Assembly (NCBI GenBank): GCA_964590505.1 | Contig: CAZPVV010000001.1 | Coordinates: forward strand, 1-44,727 | DNA: 44,727 bases | From: an uncultured Candidatus Saccharibacteria bacterium | Lineage (GTDB): Bacteria > Patescibacteriota > Minisyncoccia > Phycocordibacterales > Phycocordibacteraceae | Direction of reading: 5' to 3' | Shown here: in pieces, positions 949 through 4,788 of the stretch | Layout: each line of letters opens with the position of its first letter | Numbering within the stretch: the first letter of the stretch is position 1 | The notes under the pieces: generated by a model | Told to the model about the DNA's origin: nothing | Seen by the model: the letters and a program-made list of their open reading frames with translations, nothing else | Databases searched by the model: none | Made by a program: the position numbers and the translations under genes

Positions 949-1700
949 TTCCATAAGACATCGAATATTGATCGGTGCGCATTTGTAATGTGTGTATCGT
1001 GGACAATCATTGCTACTGGTTCGGCACAATCAACAACTATGTAGCTGGTTTTTCCGTCATACATCTGGATGATGGTTTTTGAGGGGGCATCTGCGTACTT
1101 TATGAGACGAGAGTCTGTAACCGAGGTGTCGTATGCACTCAACATACTGCGTGTGAAGGGGGTATCCGCCAGAATGCCCTTTTTCTGAATGCCCTTCCGC
1201 TTTCGTTTCTCTAGGTACTCAGTATTGAGATCGCGGTACGATTCATCGATGGCCTTGAGGTCTGCAAAGGTATAAATGACCTCCTTTGCCGAAAGAGTAT
1301 CATTTAGAACCTTTGCGATACCTCCCATCCCTTCAAAGAACTCAATTCCAGGCTTTCCTCCGGCAATGTTATAGGCAGAAGAGAGAGGTCCAAGCGCACC
1401 TTCAAGAGCTGACAGCGCATCTTTTGCTTCGTTTTGCTTTCGTTCAATGATTTCCTTGAGTTTAAGAGGATGCGCCGCAACAAACTCTGCAACTTTGCCT
1501 GCTTCTTCTCGTTTCTCAACAAGGCCCAGCCCAGAAAGCTCGCCCAGCACCTTATACGAGAGCGTTCTAGACACTGCTCCTCTGCGGGCTATGTCACTTG
1601 CACTTGAAGGTCCACTACGAACGAGTGCTTCATAAAGTCGTGCTTGCTCACCACTAAGCCCTGCCTGGATAAGGTGTTGTTCAAAAGAAGATGTGTCCAT
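900..1700 (-). CDS. TrmB-family winged-helix transcriptional regulator
   Basis: The N-terminal LYEALVRSGPSSASDIARRGAVSRTLSYKVLGELSGLGLVEK is a typical TrmB/MarR-like wHTH. The 266-aa length fits TrmB N plus C domains. Confidence 0.75.
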   Translation of the reverse strand: MDTSSFEQHLIQAGLSGEQARLYEALVRSGPSSASDIARRGAVSRTLSYKVLGELSGLGLVEKREEAGKVAEFVAAHPLKLKEIIERKQNEAKDALSALEGALGPLSSAYNIAGGKPGIEFFEGMGGIAKVLNDTLSAKEVIYTFADLKAIDESYRDLNTEYLEKRKRKGIQKKGILADTPFTRSMLSAYDTSVTDSRLIKYADAPSKTIIQMYDGKTSYIVVDCAEPVAMIVHDTHITNAHRSIFDVLWNYAEPFSSDESRSNTA

Positions 1701-1710
1701 AAATTATATT

Positions 1711-1730
1711 TTGTCATAGAATCGTGACAA
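1711..1730. promoter_or_regulatory. perfect inverted repeat TTGTCA-N8-TGACAA just upstream of the TrmB-like start; candidate auto-operator
   Basis: Read directly as ttgtca tagaatcg tgacaa. It sits next to a minus-strand TATAAT box (1703-1708). Confidence 0.4.
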
Positions 1731-1809
1731 AAACAACCTTAAAACCGTGGATTGTCTGTAAATAAAGGCTATTTATGAGACACATCATCGCAATTTATGT
1801 TCCAACACA

Positions 1810-1838
1810 TTGACAGAAGGTGAATACTGGGCTATGCT
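1810..1838 (+). promoter_or_regulatory. sigma70-type promoter TTGACA-17 nt-TATGCT facing the GC-rich island
   Basis: TTGACA at 1810-1815, a 17-nt spacer, TATGCT at 1833-1838. It has the same architecture as other promoters readable in this window. Confidence 0.55.
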
Positions 1839-1844
1839 ATTGGA

Positions 1845-2287
1845 AGTTAGATGGTCATTCAAGGAGGTGTTCAGAAATGTGCTCCCCACCCTCTAGTCCT
1901 GAAAGGGAAGGTACTCGAACCTCTCGCAAGAGCTAAGTCGAGAAAGAGGAGAGAGTGGGGATGAGAAGCGCATTTCTTCACATCTATTTGCCAGAAAGGC
2001 AGTGCGTAGAAGGAAGGTCCGCAAATACCGTCCTTTCTAGGTACTTGGGGCTTATGCCCGACAACCCCTTTCGCCCGTTTTCCTTGTGAGGAGATCGGCT
2101 GGTCACAAAGGACTAACCTCCCTTTGCGACTAGAAATGTCCTCACAACAGAAGAGGAGTCATTTGATAACTGAATAGAAGGGAACCATGAGCGAAGGAGA
2201 GAGCGCTCGTGGTTCCTCCCATGCACCTTTTTGGGTGTGGGGGAGGGATCACCGCTGTGGTGGTTCTGTTAATAGAAGGAGAAGGTT
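1845..2287 (+). promoter_or_regulatory. structured leader RNA of about 440 nt containing three micro-ORFs (19, 42 and 34 codons)
   Basis: No ORF of 60 aa or more before 2209. A long-range helix pairs 1874-1894 with 1950-1976. A 13-bp stem pairs 2181-2193 with 2204-2216. There is a C(GCAA)G loop at 1925-1928. The micro-ORFs are 1877-1936 (SD AAGGAGG), 1961-2089 and 2187-2291. Confidence 0.45.
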
Positions 2288-3350
2288 ATGAACCTTCTAG
2301 TGATCGATGCCCGCTCGCGGGATCTGCGTTGCTGGATGGCCTCGGCCACCCAGTGTTTCCAGACCCGGGCGGTCTGGAAGGCCGAAGCACCATTGGTGCT
2401 TCGGTATGCGGCAGAAATCGGTTCTTTGCACCAACTGGTGCAAAGAACCGATGAGGGGGTGCAAGCCCTCTTCCCAGGACCAGTCTTGGTCCTGGGATCC
2501 TACCAGGCGGTAGGATCTGCTGGGTTCACGGAGACCTCCGTGAACCCGCACCTCCACGGGCTGACACCCGTGGAGGTGTACGGCATCCTTAGCCCCGCTG
2601 CTGCGGGTCTAGTCCGCTTTGGGGAGCCCATAACAGGGGTTCTTCTCAGTGGATTAGTCAAGGCCCGGCTTCTGCCGGGCCAACAAAGCAGCAACTGCCA
2701 GACGGCAGCTGCTGCGCGGGCGGCAGGCCGGCTTCTGCCGAGCCTTCTTCCTGTGGTCACTCTGGCAGAAGGCCAGAGTGACCGGGTCAGAGTATGGAAA
2801 CTCGAGGGGACCGAATGTCTCTTTGAGTTTCCAGAAGAACATCAGCCGGGCTTTGGTCCGGCTGACATCCTCCGCCGTTGGCTGGAGGACGCTGTCGTAC
2901 CCTACGGGGCACGACATGACGCCGGCGGCTACGGCCACGCGGCGCTCATTCTACGGAAGGCGCTTCGTCGCCTTCCGTGGGAGGTTCAAAGAGAGGCACT
3001 CGCCTCTCTTTTCAAGAACTTTCCTACCGAAAGGTGGGAAGAGGTCCATTTCGACGAGGTGGATGAATATTATTCCGCCTGCGACAGGCGGGGGATCTGG
3101 TTCATCGAGCCAGATCCAGAGGATCCCTGTGGGGTCCTCGTCGAGTCCCTTCGCGACGCGGAGGGAAACAGGAGACAGATCCGGCTTCGGCCGAATCTGT
3201 CTCCTGAGACGGAGGGTCTCTTCGTGGAGACCCTCCGTCAGGTTCTCATTGAGTATAAGGAGAACGGTTATGTGAAGTAGGTTGGTTTCCCGAGCGCACG
3301 GTTACGCGCTCGGGACTCCTATTTAGCTCACGACAATGGTGTCGTGAGCT
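2281..3350 (+). other. array of about 28 consecutive, non-repetitive stem-loops (stems 5-16 bp, loops 3-10 nt)
   Basis: Arms read directly. Examples: 2417-2432/2437-2452 (16 bp perfect), 3208-3220/3227-3239 (13 bp), 2549-2560/2567-2578 (12 bp), 2755-2766/2772-2783 (12 bp), 2522-2532/2537-2547 (11 bp). The fuller list is in the findings. Confidence 0.8.
2288..3280 (+). CDS. hypothetical 330-aa protein; coding status uncertain because the whole ORF coincides with the hairpin array
   Basis: SD GAAGGAGAAGG lies 3-4 nt upstream of the ATG. The ORF is long for this GC content. The C-terminal two thirds look protein-like. No motif recognised. Confidence 0.45.
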   Translation: MNLLVIDARSRDLRCWMASATQCFQTRAVWKAEAPLVLRYAAEIGSLHQLVQRTDEGVQALFPGPVLVLGSYQAVGSAGFTETSVNPHLHGLTPVEVYGILSPAAAGLVRFGEPITGVLLSGLVKARLLPGQQSSNCQTAAAARAAGRLLPSLLPVVTLAEGQSDRVRVWKLEGTECLFEFPEEHQPGFGPADILRRWLEDAVVPYGARHDAGGYGHAALILRKALRRLPWEVQREALASLFKNFPTERWEEVHFDEVDEYYSACDRRGIWFIEPDPEDPCGVLVESLRDAEGNRRQIRLRPNLSPETEGLFVETLRQVLIEYKENGYVK

Positions 3351-3366
3351 AACAGGGGGTTCTATC

Positions 3367-3738
3367 ATGGACATCGTTCTGAACCAGGGAGGAGAGGTTG
3401 CGGGTGCCTCCTCCTGGACGACGGGCTTCAAAGCCTACACCCGTTGCCGACCCGCTTTCTTCAGCGAGGAGCAAGTGCTCGCGCACGCGCTCAAACTGGA
3501 GGAAGAATGGGGGAGCAGGCACGCGCTCGCTTGGCTCGAACGGTGGTTCGACCGGCAGCGGTGCCTTGGGCAAGGACCCCGTTCTTGCCCACTCCAATGG
3601 GCTCGCGACAAACGTCGTGGGCCCATAGAGTTCTTACGCACTTCCTGTGTTTGCACATCCCTGCATCACTCTGACGGAGAAGAAATCTCTCTCCTCGGCC
3701 GTCATGCTGGTGCACGGGTTTGCGAACATAGGAGGTAA
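3367..3738 (+). CDS. hypothetical 123-aa protein
   Basis: SD-like AGGGGG lies 8 nt upstream. The stop is 2 nt before the next start. Several overlapping alternative frames in this GC-rich stretch make the call tentative. Confidence 0.4.
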   Translation: MDIVLNQGGEVAGASSWTTGFKAYTRCRPAFFSEEQVLAHALKLEEEWGSRHALAWLERWFDRQRCLGQGPRSCPLQWARDKRRGPIEFLRTSCVCTSLHHSDGEEISLLGRHAGARVCEHRR

Positions 3739-3740
3739 CA

Positions 3741-3923
3741 ATGTCGCAAAAGGTCTTCTGCCTGCTCACCATGGCCGTCGTTCTGCTGCTCTTCGCAACG
3801 TTCATGGCTTACGCGAGCTACCACGACTTCGGGAAGCTCGTCCCCCAGGCCATCTTCACCGTCGGCGCATTCGTCGTTGGTGCGGTGGCCGCCGTGGGGT
3901 TCATCTTCGTGAAGGAGGAATAA
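3741..3923 (+). CDS. small membrane protein, 60 aa, two predicted TM helices
   Basis: SD TAGGAGG lies 6 nt upstream. There are two hydrophobic segments (LLTMAVVLLLFATFMAYA and FTVGAFVVGAVAAVGFIF). A terminator follows. Confidence 0.6.
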   Translation: MSQKVFCLLTMAVVLLLFATFMAYASYHDFGKLVPQAIFTVGAFVVGAVAAVGFIFVKEE

Positions 3924-3935
3924 TCATGAAGAAGA

Positions 3936-3966
3936 ACAAAAACGCCCGCTTCGGTGGGCGTTTTTC
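3936..3966. terminator. bidirectional intrinsic terminator with a C(UUCG)G-capped stem
   Basis: aaaaacgcccgc ttcg gtgggcgttttt, flanked by an A-run and a T-run. It serves the island operon and the convergent gene that ends at 3985. Confidence 0.7.
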
Positions 3967-3984
3967 TATATTCAGATACCAAAC

Positions 3985-4788
3985 TCAATTCTCAACCCCA
4001 TACTCCCTATAGAAATCCTCTATCGGCGCAGACGCACGAAGCGGAAGCATGAGCGGTTCGGTCATGATGCTCGTGAGTGGTGCATCAGGCGGAAGAGTCT
4101 TTAAGCGTTCTGTAAGAACAGACGCTAGTTCTTTATTTAGTGTTCCGTCACTAGTGAGGAACTGACCCCAGAGCATGGTTCCTTTCTGCCAGGACTCTTC
4201 TTCTGTATTAGGTACAAGATGGTCTGTAAAACTAGCAGGGTAGAGTGCGCGGTACTCCTTACGGTTATATAGCCATGAGTTACCCGTCATAGTCGTCACA
4301 TCTGGGTGCTCAGCTTTCAGTGTGCGAACAGCATCAGCAATCTCAGAACGTCGTTGTAGAACCTTATCACTTTGTAGGGGGCCAGTTGGTCCATACTCTG
4401 CATTCACAAAATGCATCTGCGCCACTTTGGTATCAGGATCAAAGGTACAACTAGAACACCCAAAACGGTGTCCTTCTTGATAGGGAATAAGATCGGTGCG
4501 GGTCTCTTTCAAATACTTCTCATACGCAATCTCAAGAAAGTTATCTCTCGTTAAGTCAGGATGCTTTACATACGTGTCTTGCGCACGATCAAATCGGTGT
4601 ATGTTCTGGTGGATCATTGGTGCATAACTCTCGGACGCCATAACGAGTGACGTTTGGTTTCGCTCGGCCATCACCTCCGCAACGCTCAGCTGAAACGCAA
4701 AGAAGTCTTTCTCAATAGGAATCTCTTCTCGTGGTGTCCACCCCTCTTTAGAAAGAGCTTCAGCAGGTTTTGTGGGCATTCTCTCCAT
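3985..4788 (-). CDS. hypothetical protein, 267 aa
   Basis: Clean ORF. A TATACT box lies 8 nt upstream of the ATG on the minus strand, which looks leaderless. No family recognised. Confidence 0.6.
   Translation of the reverse strand: MERMPTKPAEALSKEGWTPREEIPIEKDFFAFQLSVAEVMAERNQTSLVMASESYAPMIHQNIHRFDRAQDTYVKHPDLTRDNFLEIAYEKYLKETRTDLIPYQEGHRFGCSSCTFDPDTKVAQMHFVNAEYGPTGPLQSDKVLQRRSEIADAVRTLKAEHPDVTTMTGNSWLYNRKEYRALYPASFTDHLVPNTEEESWQKGTMLWGQFLTSDGTLNKELASVLTERLKTLPPDAPLTSIMTEPLMLPLRASAPIEDFYREYGVEN

Follow-up and report, generated by a model that had tools for sequence, protein, structure and literature searches.

The 44,727-nt stretch of contig CAZPVV010000001.1 analyzed here (the window), from an uncultured Candidatus Saccharibacteria bacterium, carries near its left end a unit in which a leader, a gene for an unannotated protein (gene X) and short downstream open reading frames (ORFs) follow one another on the + strand, next to a divergent gene for a TrmB-like regulator. 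The sense strand of this TrmB-linked unit is over-folded beyond what its composition or codon content accounts for, in every lineage of the candidate phyla radiation (CPR) that we examined. Bacterial coding sequences are usually held to tolerate only modest, local RNA structure. We think, with little more than even confidence, that the unit reflects selection for pervasive local folding of its transcript, with template-switch events supplying the perfect stems.

The unit contains an array of hairpins on the + strand at 2281 to 3352. When the whole window was scanned for exactly matching arms that form a stem of 8 bp or more around a loop of 2 to 12 nt, 17 perfect hairpins with stems of 8 to 17 bp were found between 2280 and 3352, in addition to imperfect ones, and an independent repeat finder concurred. 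This amounts to 17 in about 1 kb, whereas the remaining 42 kb holds around 30 (~0.7 per kb), mostly lone terminator-like hairpins. Within the coding sequence (CDS) of gene X fall 15 perfect stems of 7 bp or more. The exact-match scan delimits, on the + strand, a 17-bp stem at 2417-2433/2436-2452 and a 13-bp stem at 3208-3220/3227-3239. The start codon itself is the triloop of an 8-bp hairpin (AGAAGGTT ATG AACCTTCT, 2280-2287/2291-2298, + strand) that overlaps the end of the Shine-Dalgarno sequence. Two + strand hairpins, of 10 bp and 13 bp in the inverted-repeat scans, stand 3' of the stop codon at 3288 to 3352, neither with a convincing T-run behind it. No convincing + strand T-tract follows the hairpins anywhere in 2281 to 3352, and the only terminator-like structure of the unit is the one at 3938 to 3965.

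The arms are unique sequences, the sole exception in 1700 to 4100 being a two-copy 17-nt direct repeat, and no tandem repeat array was found there. The copies, at 2665-2681 and 2728-2744, are the hairpin CCGGCTTCTGCCGGGCC and a near-copy of it 63 nt away; they bracket the hairpin at 2688-2715 and encode ARLLPGQ and GRLLPSL. No repeat family, CRISPR array or tandem array was found. These results agree with most of what a first inspection made from the letters alone (the sequence-only reading) had described. The 17 perfect stem-loops are essentially where it placed them, several being 1 bp longer; the 330-codon ORF with a good Shine-Dalgarno sequence is present (2288 to 3280, AGGAG); and the arms are indeed unique and form no repeat family, CRISPR array, repetitive extragenic palindromic (REP) elements or attC sites. 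UUCG and GNRA loops, which it had pointed out, do occur, although they are few.

Folding energies confirm that the array is not a product of base composition. With pairing limited to a 60-nt span, about 70% of its bases are paired. The local minimum free energy of the gene X CDS is -581 kcal/mol, compared with -337 +/- 12 kcal/mol for dinucleotide shuffles (z -19.9), -356 +/- 13 kcal/mol for synonymous-codon shuffles that keep both protein and codon usage (z -17.1), and -335 +/- 11 kcal/mol for codon-permutation shuffles (z -22.4). The structure suspected from the sequence thus exceeds all three kinds of shuffle, at z -17 to -22. The minimum free energy difference (MFED) from shuffles, a metric used for RNA viruses and calculated here on unconstrained 350-nt fragments, is 46% for gene X and 43% for 2100 to 3900, against 5-9% in two control stretches of the window. 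In the scan of the whole window, a run of five 300-nt bins with z <= -6.5 occurs only at 2101 to 3600, and the other low-z bins are single terminator-like hairpins, so that nothing comparable is present elsewhere in the window, and the earlier by-eye statement on its core genes is upheld. The over-folded, G+C-enriched unit of leader, gene X and downstream ORFs spans 2100 to 3900 on the + strand, with per-bin z values of -6 to -16 and a G+C content of 0.54-0.63 vs 0.43-0.50 in the flanks. The folded stretch begins inside the predicted leader and stops at the terminator, and it is contained in the predicted transcription unit.

Gene X (2288 to 3280, + strand, 330 aa) is a genuine protein-coding gene, because it has a family of homologs, conserved motifs and a confident AlphaFold2 model. 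A profile search against 1.84 billion representatives recovered 186 cluster representatives at E <=1e-3 and 92 at <=1e-30, and homologs share 27-37% identity with the protein. The family has been seen only in CPR genomes and on unassigned metagenomic contigs; the genome records are Berkelbacteria, Parcubacteria and Saccharibacteria, and the source records label its members "hypothetical" or leave them unnamed. Conservation is concentrated in an N-terminal domain of ~190 residues, in which D7, R11, R39, Y72, A74, S77, G79, S135-N136, E161-G-Q-S-D165 and E184-H185 are invariant or nearly so and the motifs VIDARSR, YQA.SSAGF, NSN..TA, EGQSD and EEHR recur. The AlphaFold2 model of this domain (2288 to 2887) consists mostly of beta strands and has a predicted local distance difference test score (pLDDT) of 92 and a predicted template modeling score (pTM) of 0.89. 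No profile match for X was found in Pfam, NCBIfam, PHROGs, PADLOC or PDB sequences. Furthermore, Foldseek at E <=0.001 returned no PDB match for either the full-length or the N-domain model, and none in BFVD for the full-length one. As modeled, the N-domain may represent a new fold, with invariant polar residues reminiscent of enzymes. The G+C content at third codon positions (GC3) is 0.65 in gene X vs 0.38-0.50 in the neighboring genes; the G+C rise is thus not an amino-acid effect.

The extreme folding, the G+C content raised as in structural RNA genes and the lack of an annotated protein family would also suit a large structured noncoding RNA with a fortuitous 330-codon frame, an explanation that we regard as very improbable. 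The homologs of the frame, with their conserved motifs, fill at least 186 clusters, its model is confident (pLDDT 92), conserved residues are maintained in the hairpin arms, hairpin positions differ between orthologs, and Rfam offers no match. At gathering thresholds, Rfam 15 matched no family anywhere in the 44.7-kb window, in which no tRNA or tmRNA was detected either, its housekeeping genes notwithstanding. A search of 1700 to 4050 at E <=1 gave only sub-threshold matches, mostly of terminator type at 3852-3969 and two at 2794-2871. We reject a noncoding RNA with a chance ORF on the protein homologs, the conserved motifs and the confident model.

The message also seems to be made for translation, as far as predicted folds can tell. 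The energy needed to open positions -15 to +6 around the start of X is 5.6 kcal/mol, close to that of control genes, and occlusion of the ribosome-binding site by the hairpin with the ATG in its loop is not established. Uniform occlusion, which would make the mRNA translationally inert, was considered and rejected, since the opening energies of ribosome-binding regions range from 0.6 to 23 kcal/mol and are mostly control-like. With no consistent occlusion of these regions, the message is apparently built to be translated.

The same properties recur at homologous loci in other CPR bacteria. Our comparison set comprised 14 distinct loci from at least three CPR lineages, in assemblies from JGI, ENA, NCBI and Logan. 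At all 14, G+C is higher in the stretch that takes in the leader, X and the small ORFs downstream than in the flanks, and at nearly all of them by 10-25 points. Local-folding z values are about -4 to -15 over X and its neighbors at L001, L002, L004, L005, L006, L007, L009, L012, L014, L015, L016, L018 and L019, and near 0 in the flanking genes; L013 is a weak exception to both the G+C rise and the over-folding. The contrast is clearest at L014, where the genome has 30% G+C, X has 41-46% and z goes down to -15. At L018 and L019 the flanks are long and flat, and the 2-3 kb around X stands out from them. The MFED is 27-36% at the four other loci for which it was measured. Over-folding and raised G+C are therefore a trait of the locus and not a quirk of the window contig. 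The region is not the isolated 1-kb curiosity that the sequence-only reading had taken it for: the ORF belongs to a conserved family, the folding extends over ~2100 to 3900, and the trait is found at other CPR loci. We give practically no weight to an artefact of assembly or amplification, in which inverted pieces would have been joined into chimeras, a possibility that the sequence-only reading had named. Nothing specific speaks for it, the hairpins keep to the reading frame of a conserved protein, and the trait is also seen in independent JGI, ENA, NCBI and Logan assemblies.

X is the only gene shared by all units, and the accessory genes vary from locus to locus: a HrpA-like DEAH RNA helicase (L006, L009), Csx15 (L001) and unconserved small ORFs. 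The HrpA/HrpB-like helicase gene lies within the over-folded unit and is itself over-folded (L006 823-3975, L009 3044-4138). The gene for Csx15, a CRISPR-associated protein, lies 3' of X at L001 7222-7608 and scores 85.8 bits against an NCBIfam cut-off of 35. PADLOC reported no defense-system match for X, and Csx15 beside X in L001 was the only such gene.

Comparison of related loci shows that the individual stems turn over. Between L006 and L008, which are 73% identical in nucleotide sequence, 45% of the predicted pairs are shared, and compensatory double changes number 16-17 vs 7-8 expected. Between L003 and L009 (67%) and between the helicase genes of L006 and L009 (69%), less than 20% of the predicted pairs are shared and compensatory counts match the null, the partners being equally folded. 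Individual hairpins thus come and go, while hairpin density and raised G+C are maintained. It is important to consider that, with individual hairpins not conserved between orthologs, a covariation test would mostly fail even though the trait is real.

The protein shows no visible cost of the hairpins. Among the conserved columns of the family, 23 of 30 inside hairpin arms match the consensus, compared with 23 of 43 outside them; hairpins forcing non-consensus residues into X were accordingly not seen in this comparison. In the usual layout, a conserved motif occupies one arm and a variable segment the partner arm. GQSD, for instance, is encoded on the right arm of 2755-2783, and GSY on the left arm of 2496-2517. 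The hairpin at 2357-2379 lies inside an insertion relative to the homologs. The commonest pairing phase, found in 8 of 15 stems, sets codon position 1 against 3 and 2 against 2. Pairing is carried by codon choice and by less constrained residues, and the conserved residues of X are kept.

Whether the folding belongs to the RNA or to the DNA was addressed by comparing strands. At all 14 loci the sense strand folds more stably than the antisense strand, by a margin that exceeds the dinucleotide-shuffle null (z -1.2 to -7.4, mean -3.6), with z -2.2 in the window itself, vs a mean z of +0.4 (range -0.4 to +1.6) for 12 control genes of the window in sense orientation. A sense-strand excess at 14 of 14 loci is not predicted by a symmetric DNA palindrome process. 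Additionally, structural RNA genes of AT-rich genomes have raised G+C, and the similar rise in this unit points to the sense RNA, as does the confinement of the folded stretch to the predicted transcription unit. The sequence-only reading had also concluded that RNA structure is selected on the + strand, and this conclusion keeps its support through the sense-minus-antisense energy at 14 of 14 loci. The argument it had used, about nine G-U pairs against one A-C in the stems, falls. Single mismatches in the strong stems of 2100 to 3965 are 1 G-T vs 4 A-C, and a scan of 2281 to 3352 with 10-bp arms gives 6 G-T vs 4 A-C. G-U pairs in the + strand fold number 29 vs 10, compared with 42 vs 28 in shuffles, so that the excess is about what composition gives.

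The perfection of the stems in the window brings in a competing explanation, in which the coding palindromes are purely a DNA-level matter: mutation or conversion would make and keep the inverted repeats, through template switching in replication, repair primed by hairpins, or the conversion of cruciforms or single-stranded DNA hairpins, and RNA folding would be a functionless by-product. Such an origin has been proposed for mitochondrial genes of hairworms. For the window, we judge this DNA-level process unlikely as the whole explanation, though it has to be taken seriously. In the 10-bp-arm scan of 2281 to 3352, perfect, one-mismatch and two-mismatch stems number 11 / 7 / 5, against a background of 0.3 / 0.6 / 3.1 per kb. 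The stems of the window are thus overwhelmingly perfect Watson-Crick ones, and the mismatches of the strong stems show no G-T bias. Hairpins are gained and lost fast. In addition, large leader indels are entire hairpins: the leaders of L002 and L016 are 76% identical, and the three longest indels between them (92, 36 and 23 nt) each comprise a hairpin module in full. The 92-nt indel consists of three consecutive perfect hairpins (alignment columns 263-354), and the others occupy columns 417-452 and 521-543. The prevalence of perfect over imperfect stems, the few G-U pairs in strong stems and the hairpin-module indels together indicate a DNA-level source of the hairpins. Signs of this kind are discussed for template switching in bacteria, where perfecting by such switches is described (PMC5941160), and for the coding palindromes of hairworm mitochondria, for which the same argument from binary identity has been made (PMC6649704).

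However, a replication or repair process of a general kind would be expected to affect the whole genome. Here it would have marked a single unit in 44.7 kb, and in no fewer than 13 further assemblies, which represent several CPR lineages, the trait is again confined to the homologous unit. Such a process predicts neither the rise in G+C, which includes third codon positions, nor the sense-strand advantage, which is present at 14 of 14 loci and absent from the controls. Moreover, at most other loci the 10-bp-arm scan finds that imperfect stems predominate, as expected if selection on point mutations keeps the structures.

The relation between L002 and L016 bears on a further alternative. L002 1-2597 and L016 3990-6060 align with 76-92% identity over the ~1-kb leader and the downstream flank, and this identity also covers the first ~15 nt and the last ~32 nt of X. 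Between the X proteins of the two loci identity is only 30%, and both have closer counterparts at other loci; in this pair, X thus behaves like a cassette that is exchanged or hypervariable while its flanks are conserved. One could suppose that a foreign G+C-rich mobile cassette, for example an element with a single-stranded DNA or RNA phase, is swapped into a hot spot beside the TrmB gene, and that composition and hairpins are its donor's biology. Besides the divergence of X between such similar flanks, the excess of 10-25 points of G+C over the flanks, the accessory genes that differ by locus (Csx15, the HrpA-like helicase, small ORFs) and the position of all the unit's genes on one strand speak for it. 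We nevertheless consider it improbable. No island contains an integrase, transposase, Rep/relaxase or capsid gene, X has no PHROG match, family X was not found on IMG/VR contigs, and the arrangement, with TrmB gene, palindrome, leader and X, is kept from lineage to lineage. A foreign origin would account for composition, but not for z -17 against synonymous shuffles. A prophage or viral origin, more specifically, was rejected, since there is no IMG/VR locus and no PHROG match for X or most of its neighbors.

We therefore return to selection on the transcript as the explanation that we favor. The sense RNA of the unit would be selected for pervasive local folding, as a cellular analogue of the ordered RNA structure on genome scale (GORS) of viruses. 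In the window genome, hairpin-templated mutation by template switching would perfect near-palindromes and insert whole hairpin modules, and selection would retain the hairpins so produced. The purpose that we hold likeliest is a compact, long-lived transcript with little single-stranded RNA, which would resist single-strand-specific nucleases and base-pairing RNA-guided effectors. The ribosome-binding site would be kept about as open as in ordinary genes, so that the protein could still be made. More weakly, and by analogy, the benefit may be that the RNA of a gene that evolves fast is protected, lasts longer or is compacted.

Several points weigh against this explanation. In its strongest stems the window has hardly any G-U pairs and does have A-C mismatches (1 G-T vs 4 A-C), a pattern that suits DNA-templated palindromes better than selection acting on the RNA over a long time. 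For the window itself the sense strand is only modestly favored (z -2.2), and the strand bias is not strict proof of RNA, because G-T wobbles stabilize single-stranded DNA hairpins as well. No relative with more than 40% protein identity to the window's X was found in the protein database, GTDB genomes or JGI metagenomes, the best having ~37%. The comparisons of hairpin turnover were accordingly made on three ortholog pairs from other loci. Furthermore, every RNA structure discussed here is a predicted fold, and the shielding or stability benefit rests on analogy.

A role of X in conflict would be compatible with the divergence of X between L002 and L016, with the RNA helicase at two loci and with Csx15 at one. 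Taking this further, the TrmB-like gene, the palindrome, the leader and hypervariable X could form one regulated CPR operon whose hairpin-armored transcript keeps a rapidly evolving and probably conflict-related gene expressible or persistent, which we put forward as a tentative and rather doubtful extension. The armor would protect against toxin RNases, RNA-targeting CRISPR or abortive infection systems, or through dormancy; alternatively, the RNA might be compact enough for binding, storage or export by its own product. Template switching would then be a mutational engine exploited by selection, and the RNA fold, besides the protein, would be a selected phenotype over more than 2 kb of bacterial mRNA.

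The surroundings of X are consistent between loci. X is chromosomal, and its flanks include housekeeping genes such as those for RNase Y and HU. In the window, the gene for a TrmB-like helix-turn-helix regulator (900 to 1700, - strand; Pfam TrmB, E 6e-11) is divergent from the hairpin-rich unit and has background G+C without excess folding. A TrmB-like gene is likewise divergent and upstream of X in the window, L001, L005, L007, L014, L016, L018 and L019, and a GNAT-like gene lies beyond it at four loci. In the window, the GNAT-like ORF (7-948, +) and the TrmB-like ORF (900-1700, -) are convergent, with a 49-nt 3' overlap at 900-948.

Just 5' of the TrmB start codon lies the palindrome TTGTCA-N8-TGACAA (1711 to 1732, no strand assigned), a candidate operator or bidirectional promoter element. 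The exact form TTGTCA-N7-9-TGACAA occurs once per locus in eight loci: the window, L001 (4212), L002 (82), L007 (4967), L013 (949), L014 (5763), L016 (4075) and L019 (6100). L005 (3600) and L018 (6230) have it with one mismatch. Where a TrmB gene was called, the palindrome is no more than ~100 nt upstream of its start, and by our own estimate ~0.03 matches would be expected by chance in the 185 kb searched. From sequence, it is a candidate for the operator of the TrmB-like regulator combined with a bidirectional -35 element, to which the regulator would bind. A sigma-70-like promoter candidate for the leader and X (TTGACA-17-TATGCT, 1810 to 1838, + strand) is put forward on its consensus match only (10/12), and TTGACA...TATACT is conserved at a similar place in L002 and L016. 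The leader includes a conserved segment (2091 to 2174, + strand) with nested stems and a hairpin with a CTAACC loop, followed by GAAATGTC. It can be aligned to L007 5339-5422 and L004 26-185, and a looser form of it is present at L002 ~540-610 and L016 ~4430-4500. Some of its pairs survive changes on both sides, and it matches no Rfam family; it is a candidate cis-regulatory RNA motif.

Downstream of X, the over-folded unit of the window contains a putative ORF of 123 aa (3367 to 3738, + strand), which was among the listed ORFs, has a G+C content of 0.63-0.65 at codon positions 1 and 3, and gave no family match and no homolog at the other loci. It is followed by a putative hydrophobic ORF of 60 aa (3741 to 3923, + strand), whose GC3 of 0.87 is the most extreme of the unit and which has a marginal PHROG match (E 0.008). 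The unit ends at a hairpin resembling a bidirectional intrinsic terminator (3938 to 3965, no strand assigned; AAAAACGCCC-N8-GGGCGTTTTT), to which only weak terminator-type Rfam matches correspond.

Two further elements were observed near X at other loci. Three lineages have in common a tagged palindrome upstream of X, GTC-ATTCCnGn-loop-nCnGGAAT (L002 271-290, 931-951 and 956-975; L005 4655-4674; L014 5690-5709 and 6961-6980), which was not found in the window. In L014 there is one on each side of X, in inverted orientation. The palindrome may serve as an operator or a recombination site, or may be of the REP-like kind. Additionally, L016 (3395-3796) and L017 have, in the interval from the TrmB gene to the X leader, a gene assigned to the 23S-rRNA-intervening-sequence / bAvd family. 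bAvd is a four-helix-bundle accessory protein of diversity-generating retroelements; no reverse transcriptase gene was called in the stretch covered.

These results show that the message for a conserved protein can be 43-46% more stable than its shuffles, about twice the figure for the most highly structured genomes recorded among RNA viruses. Several candidate phyla have retained the trait at the same locus, with individual hairpins turning over. If it is selected, it would be, as far as the descriptions we found go, the first operon-scale folding for its own sake in a cellular mRNA. It would also be a tractable system for studying what pervasive RNA structure does, be it stability, shielding from RNases or RNA-guided immunity, or the pacing of translation. 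If it is mutational instead, a locus-specific palindrome-generating process in bacteria would have been exposed. Either way, the unit shows how far the degeneracy of the genetic code can stretch, and an uncharacterized protein family with an apparently new fold, as modeled, and a conserved regulatory architecture are flagged for study.

The sequence-only reading knew of no described element with this architecture. This stands for bacteria, where none matches; the full-text literature, with subscription journals mostly outside its coverage, yielded no account of an operon-specific, lineage-spanning, hyper-folded bacterial mRNA. It does not stand beyond bacteria, where there are analogues (PMC6649704, PMC7642675). 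Among bacterial systems, template switching maintains perfect short inverted repeats, with an enrichment that is mild, genome-wide and mostly intergenic (PMC5941160). The perfecting of quasi-palindromes is a plausible reason why perfect stems are in excess over imperfect ones in the window, but it yields neither ~16 perfect hairpins per kb within a single gene nor a trait tied to one locus. REP elements and bacterial interspersed mosaic elements, miniature inverted-repeat transposable elements, Rickettsia palindromic elements (RPE), attC sites and CRISPR are likewise short stem-loops, some within genes (RPE) or in arrays (attC, CRISPR). Those, however, are related copies of a sequence, whereas the arms of the X unit are unique, and the unit in the window has no transposase, integrase or cas gene. 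With large noncoding RNAs of bacteria in Rfam, such as GOLLD, ROOL, OLE and HEARO, the unit shares long, G+C-enriched and highly structured transcripts, often from uncultivated bacteria; these RNAs have architectures detectable by covariance and no conserved protein, whereas the X unit encodes one and has no Rfam match.

The closest likenesses lie outside bacteria. In RNA viruses with GORS, favored stem-loops follow one another by the hundred through the coding sequence, the most structured viruses have MFED values of 7-24%, and relatives conserve few of the pairings but preserve the overall degree of folding, so that folding itself seems to matter (PMC7642675). The X unit is similar in that its folding energy is far below that of sequence-order-randomized controls across the whole coding RNA, and in that pairings turn over between orthologs at a maintained level of folding. 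It differs in being a chromosomally encoded bacterial mRNA and not a viral genome, in the restriction of the trait to one operon, in its higher MFED (27-46% at X loci) and in the many stems that are perfect palindromes of 10-17 bp; the viral benefit, evasion of vertebrate innate sensing, is inapplicable as such. The mitochondrial genomes of hairworms (Nematomorpha) carry coding palindromes of up to 284 bp, spread across the genome, in which both arms code for conserved protein and which are gained and lost dynamically, with template switching or conversion under discussion (PMC6649704). Gene X resembles them in having perfect inverted repeats within a functional CDS, with both arms coding, and the favored pairing phase, 1 with 3 and 2 with 2, is the same in both. 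As to the perfect-or-absent identity of the hairworm repeats, near-perfect stems are fewer than perfect ones in the window (11 / 7 / 5), but imperfect stems dominate the other loci. The arms in X, moreover, are only 7-17 bp long and packed wall to wall, and the trait belongs to one transcription unit with raised G+C and a sense-strand bias and is kept across bacterial lineages. Thus, the X unit behaves like both GORS and the coding palindromes of Nematomorpha and is a member of neither.

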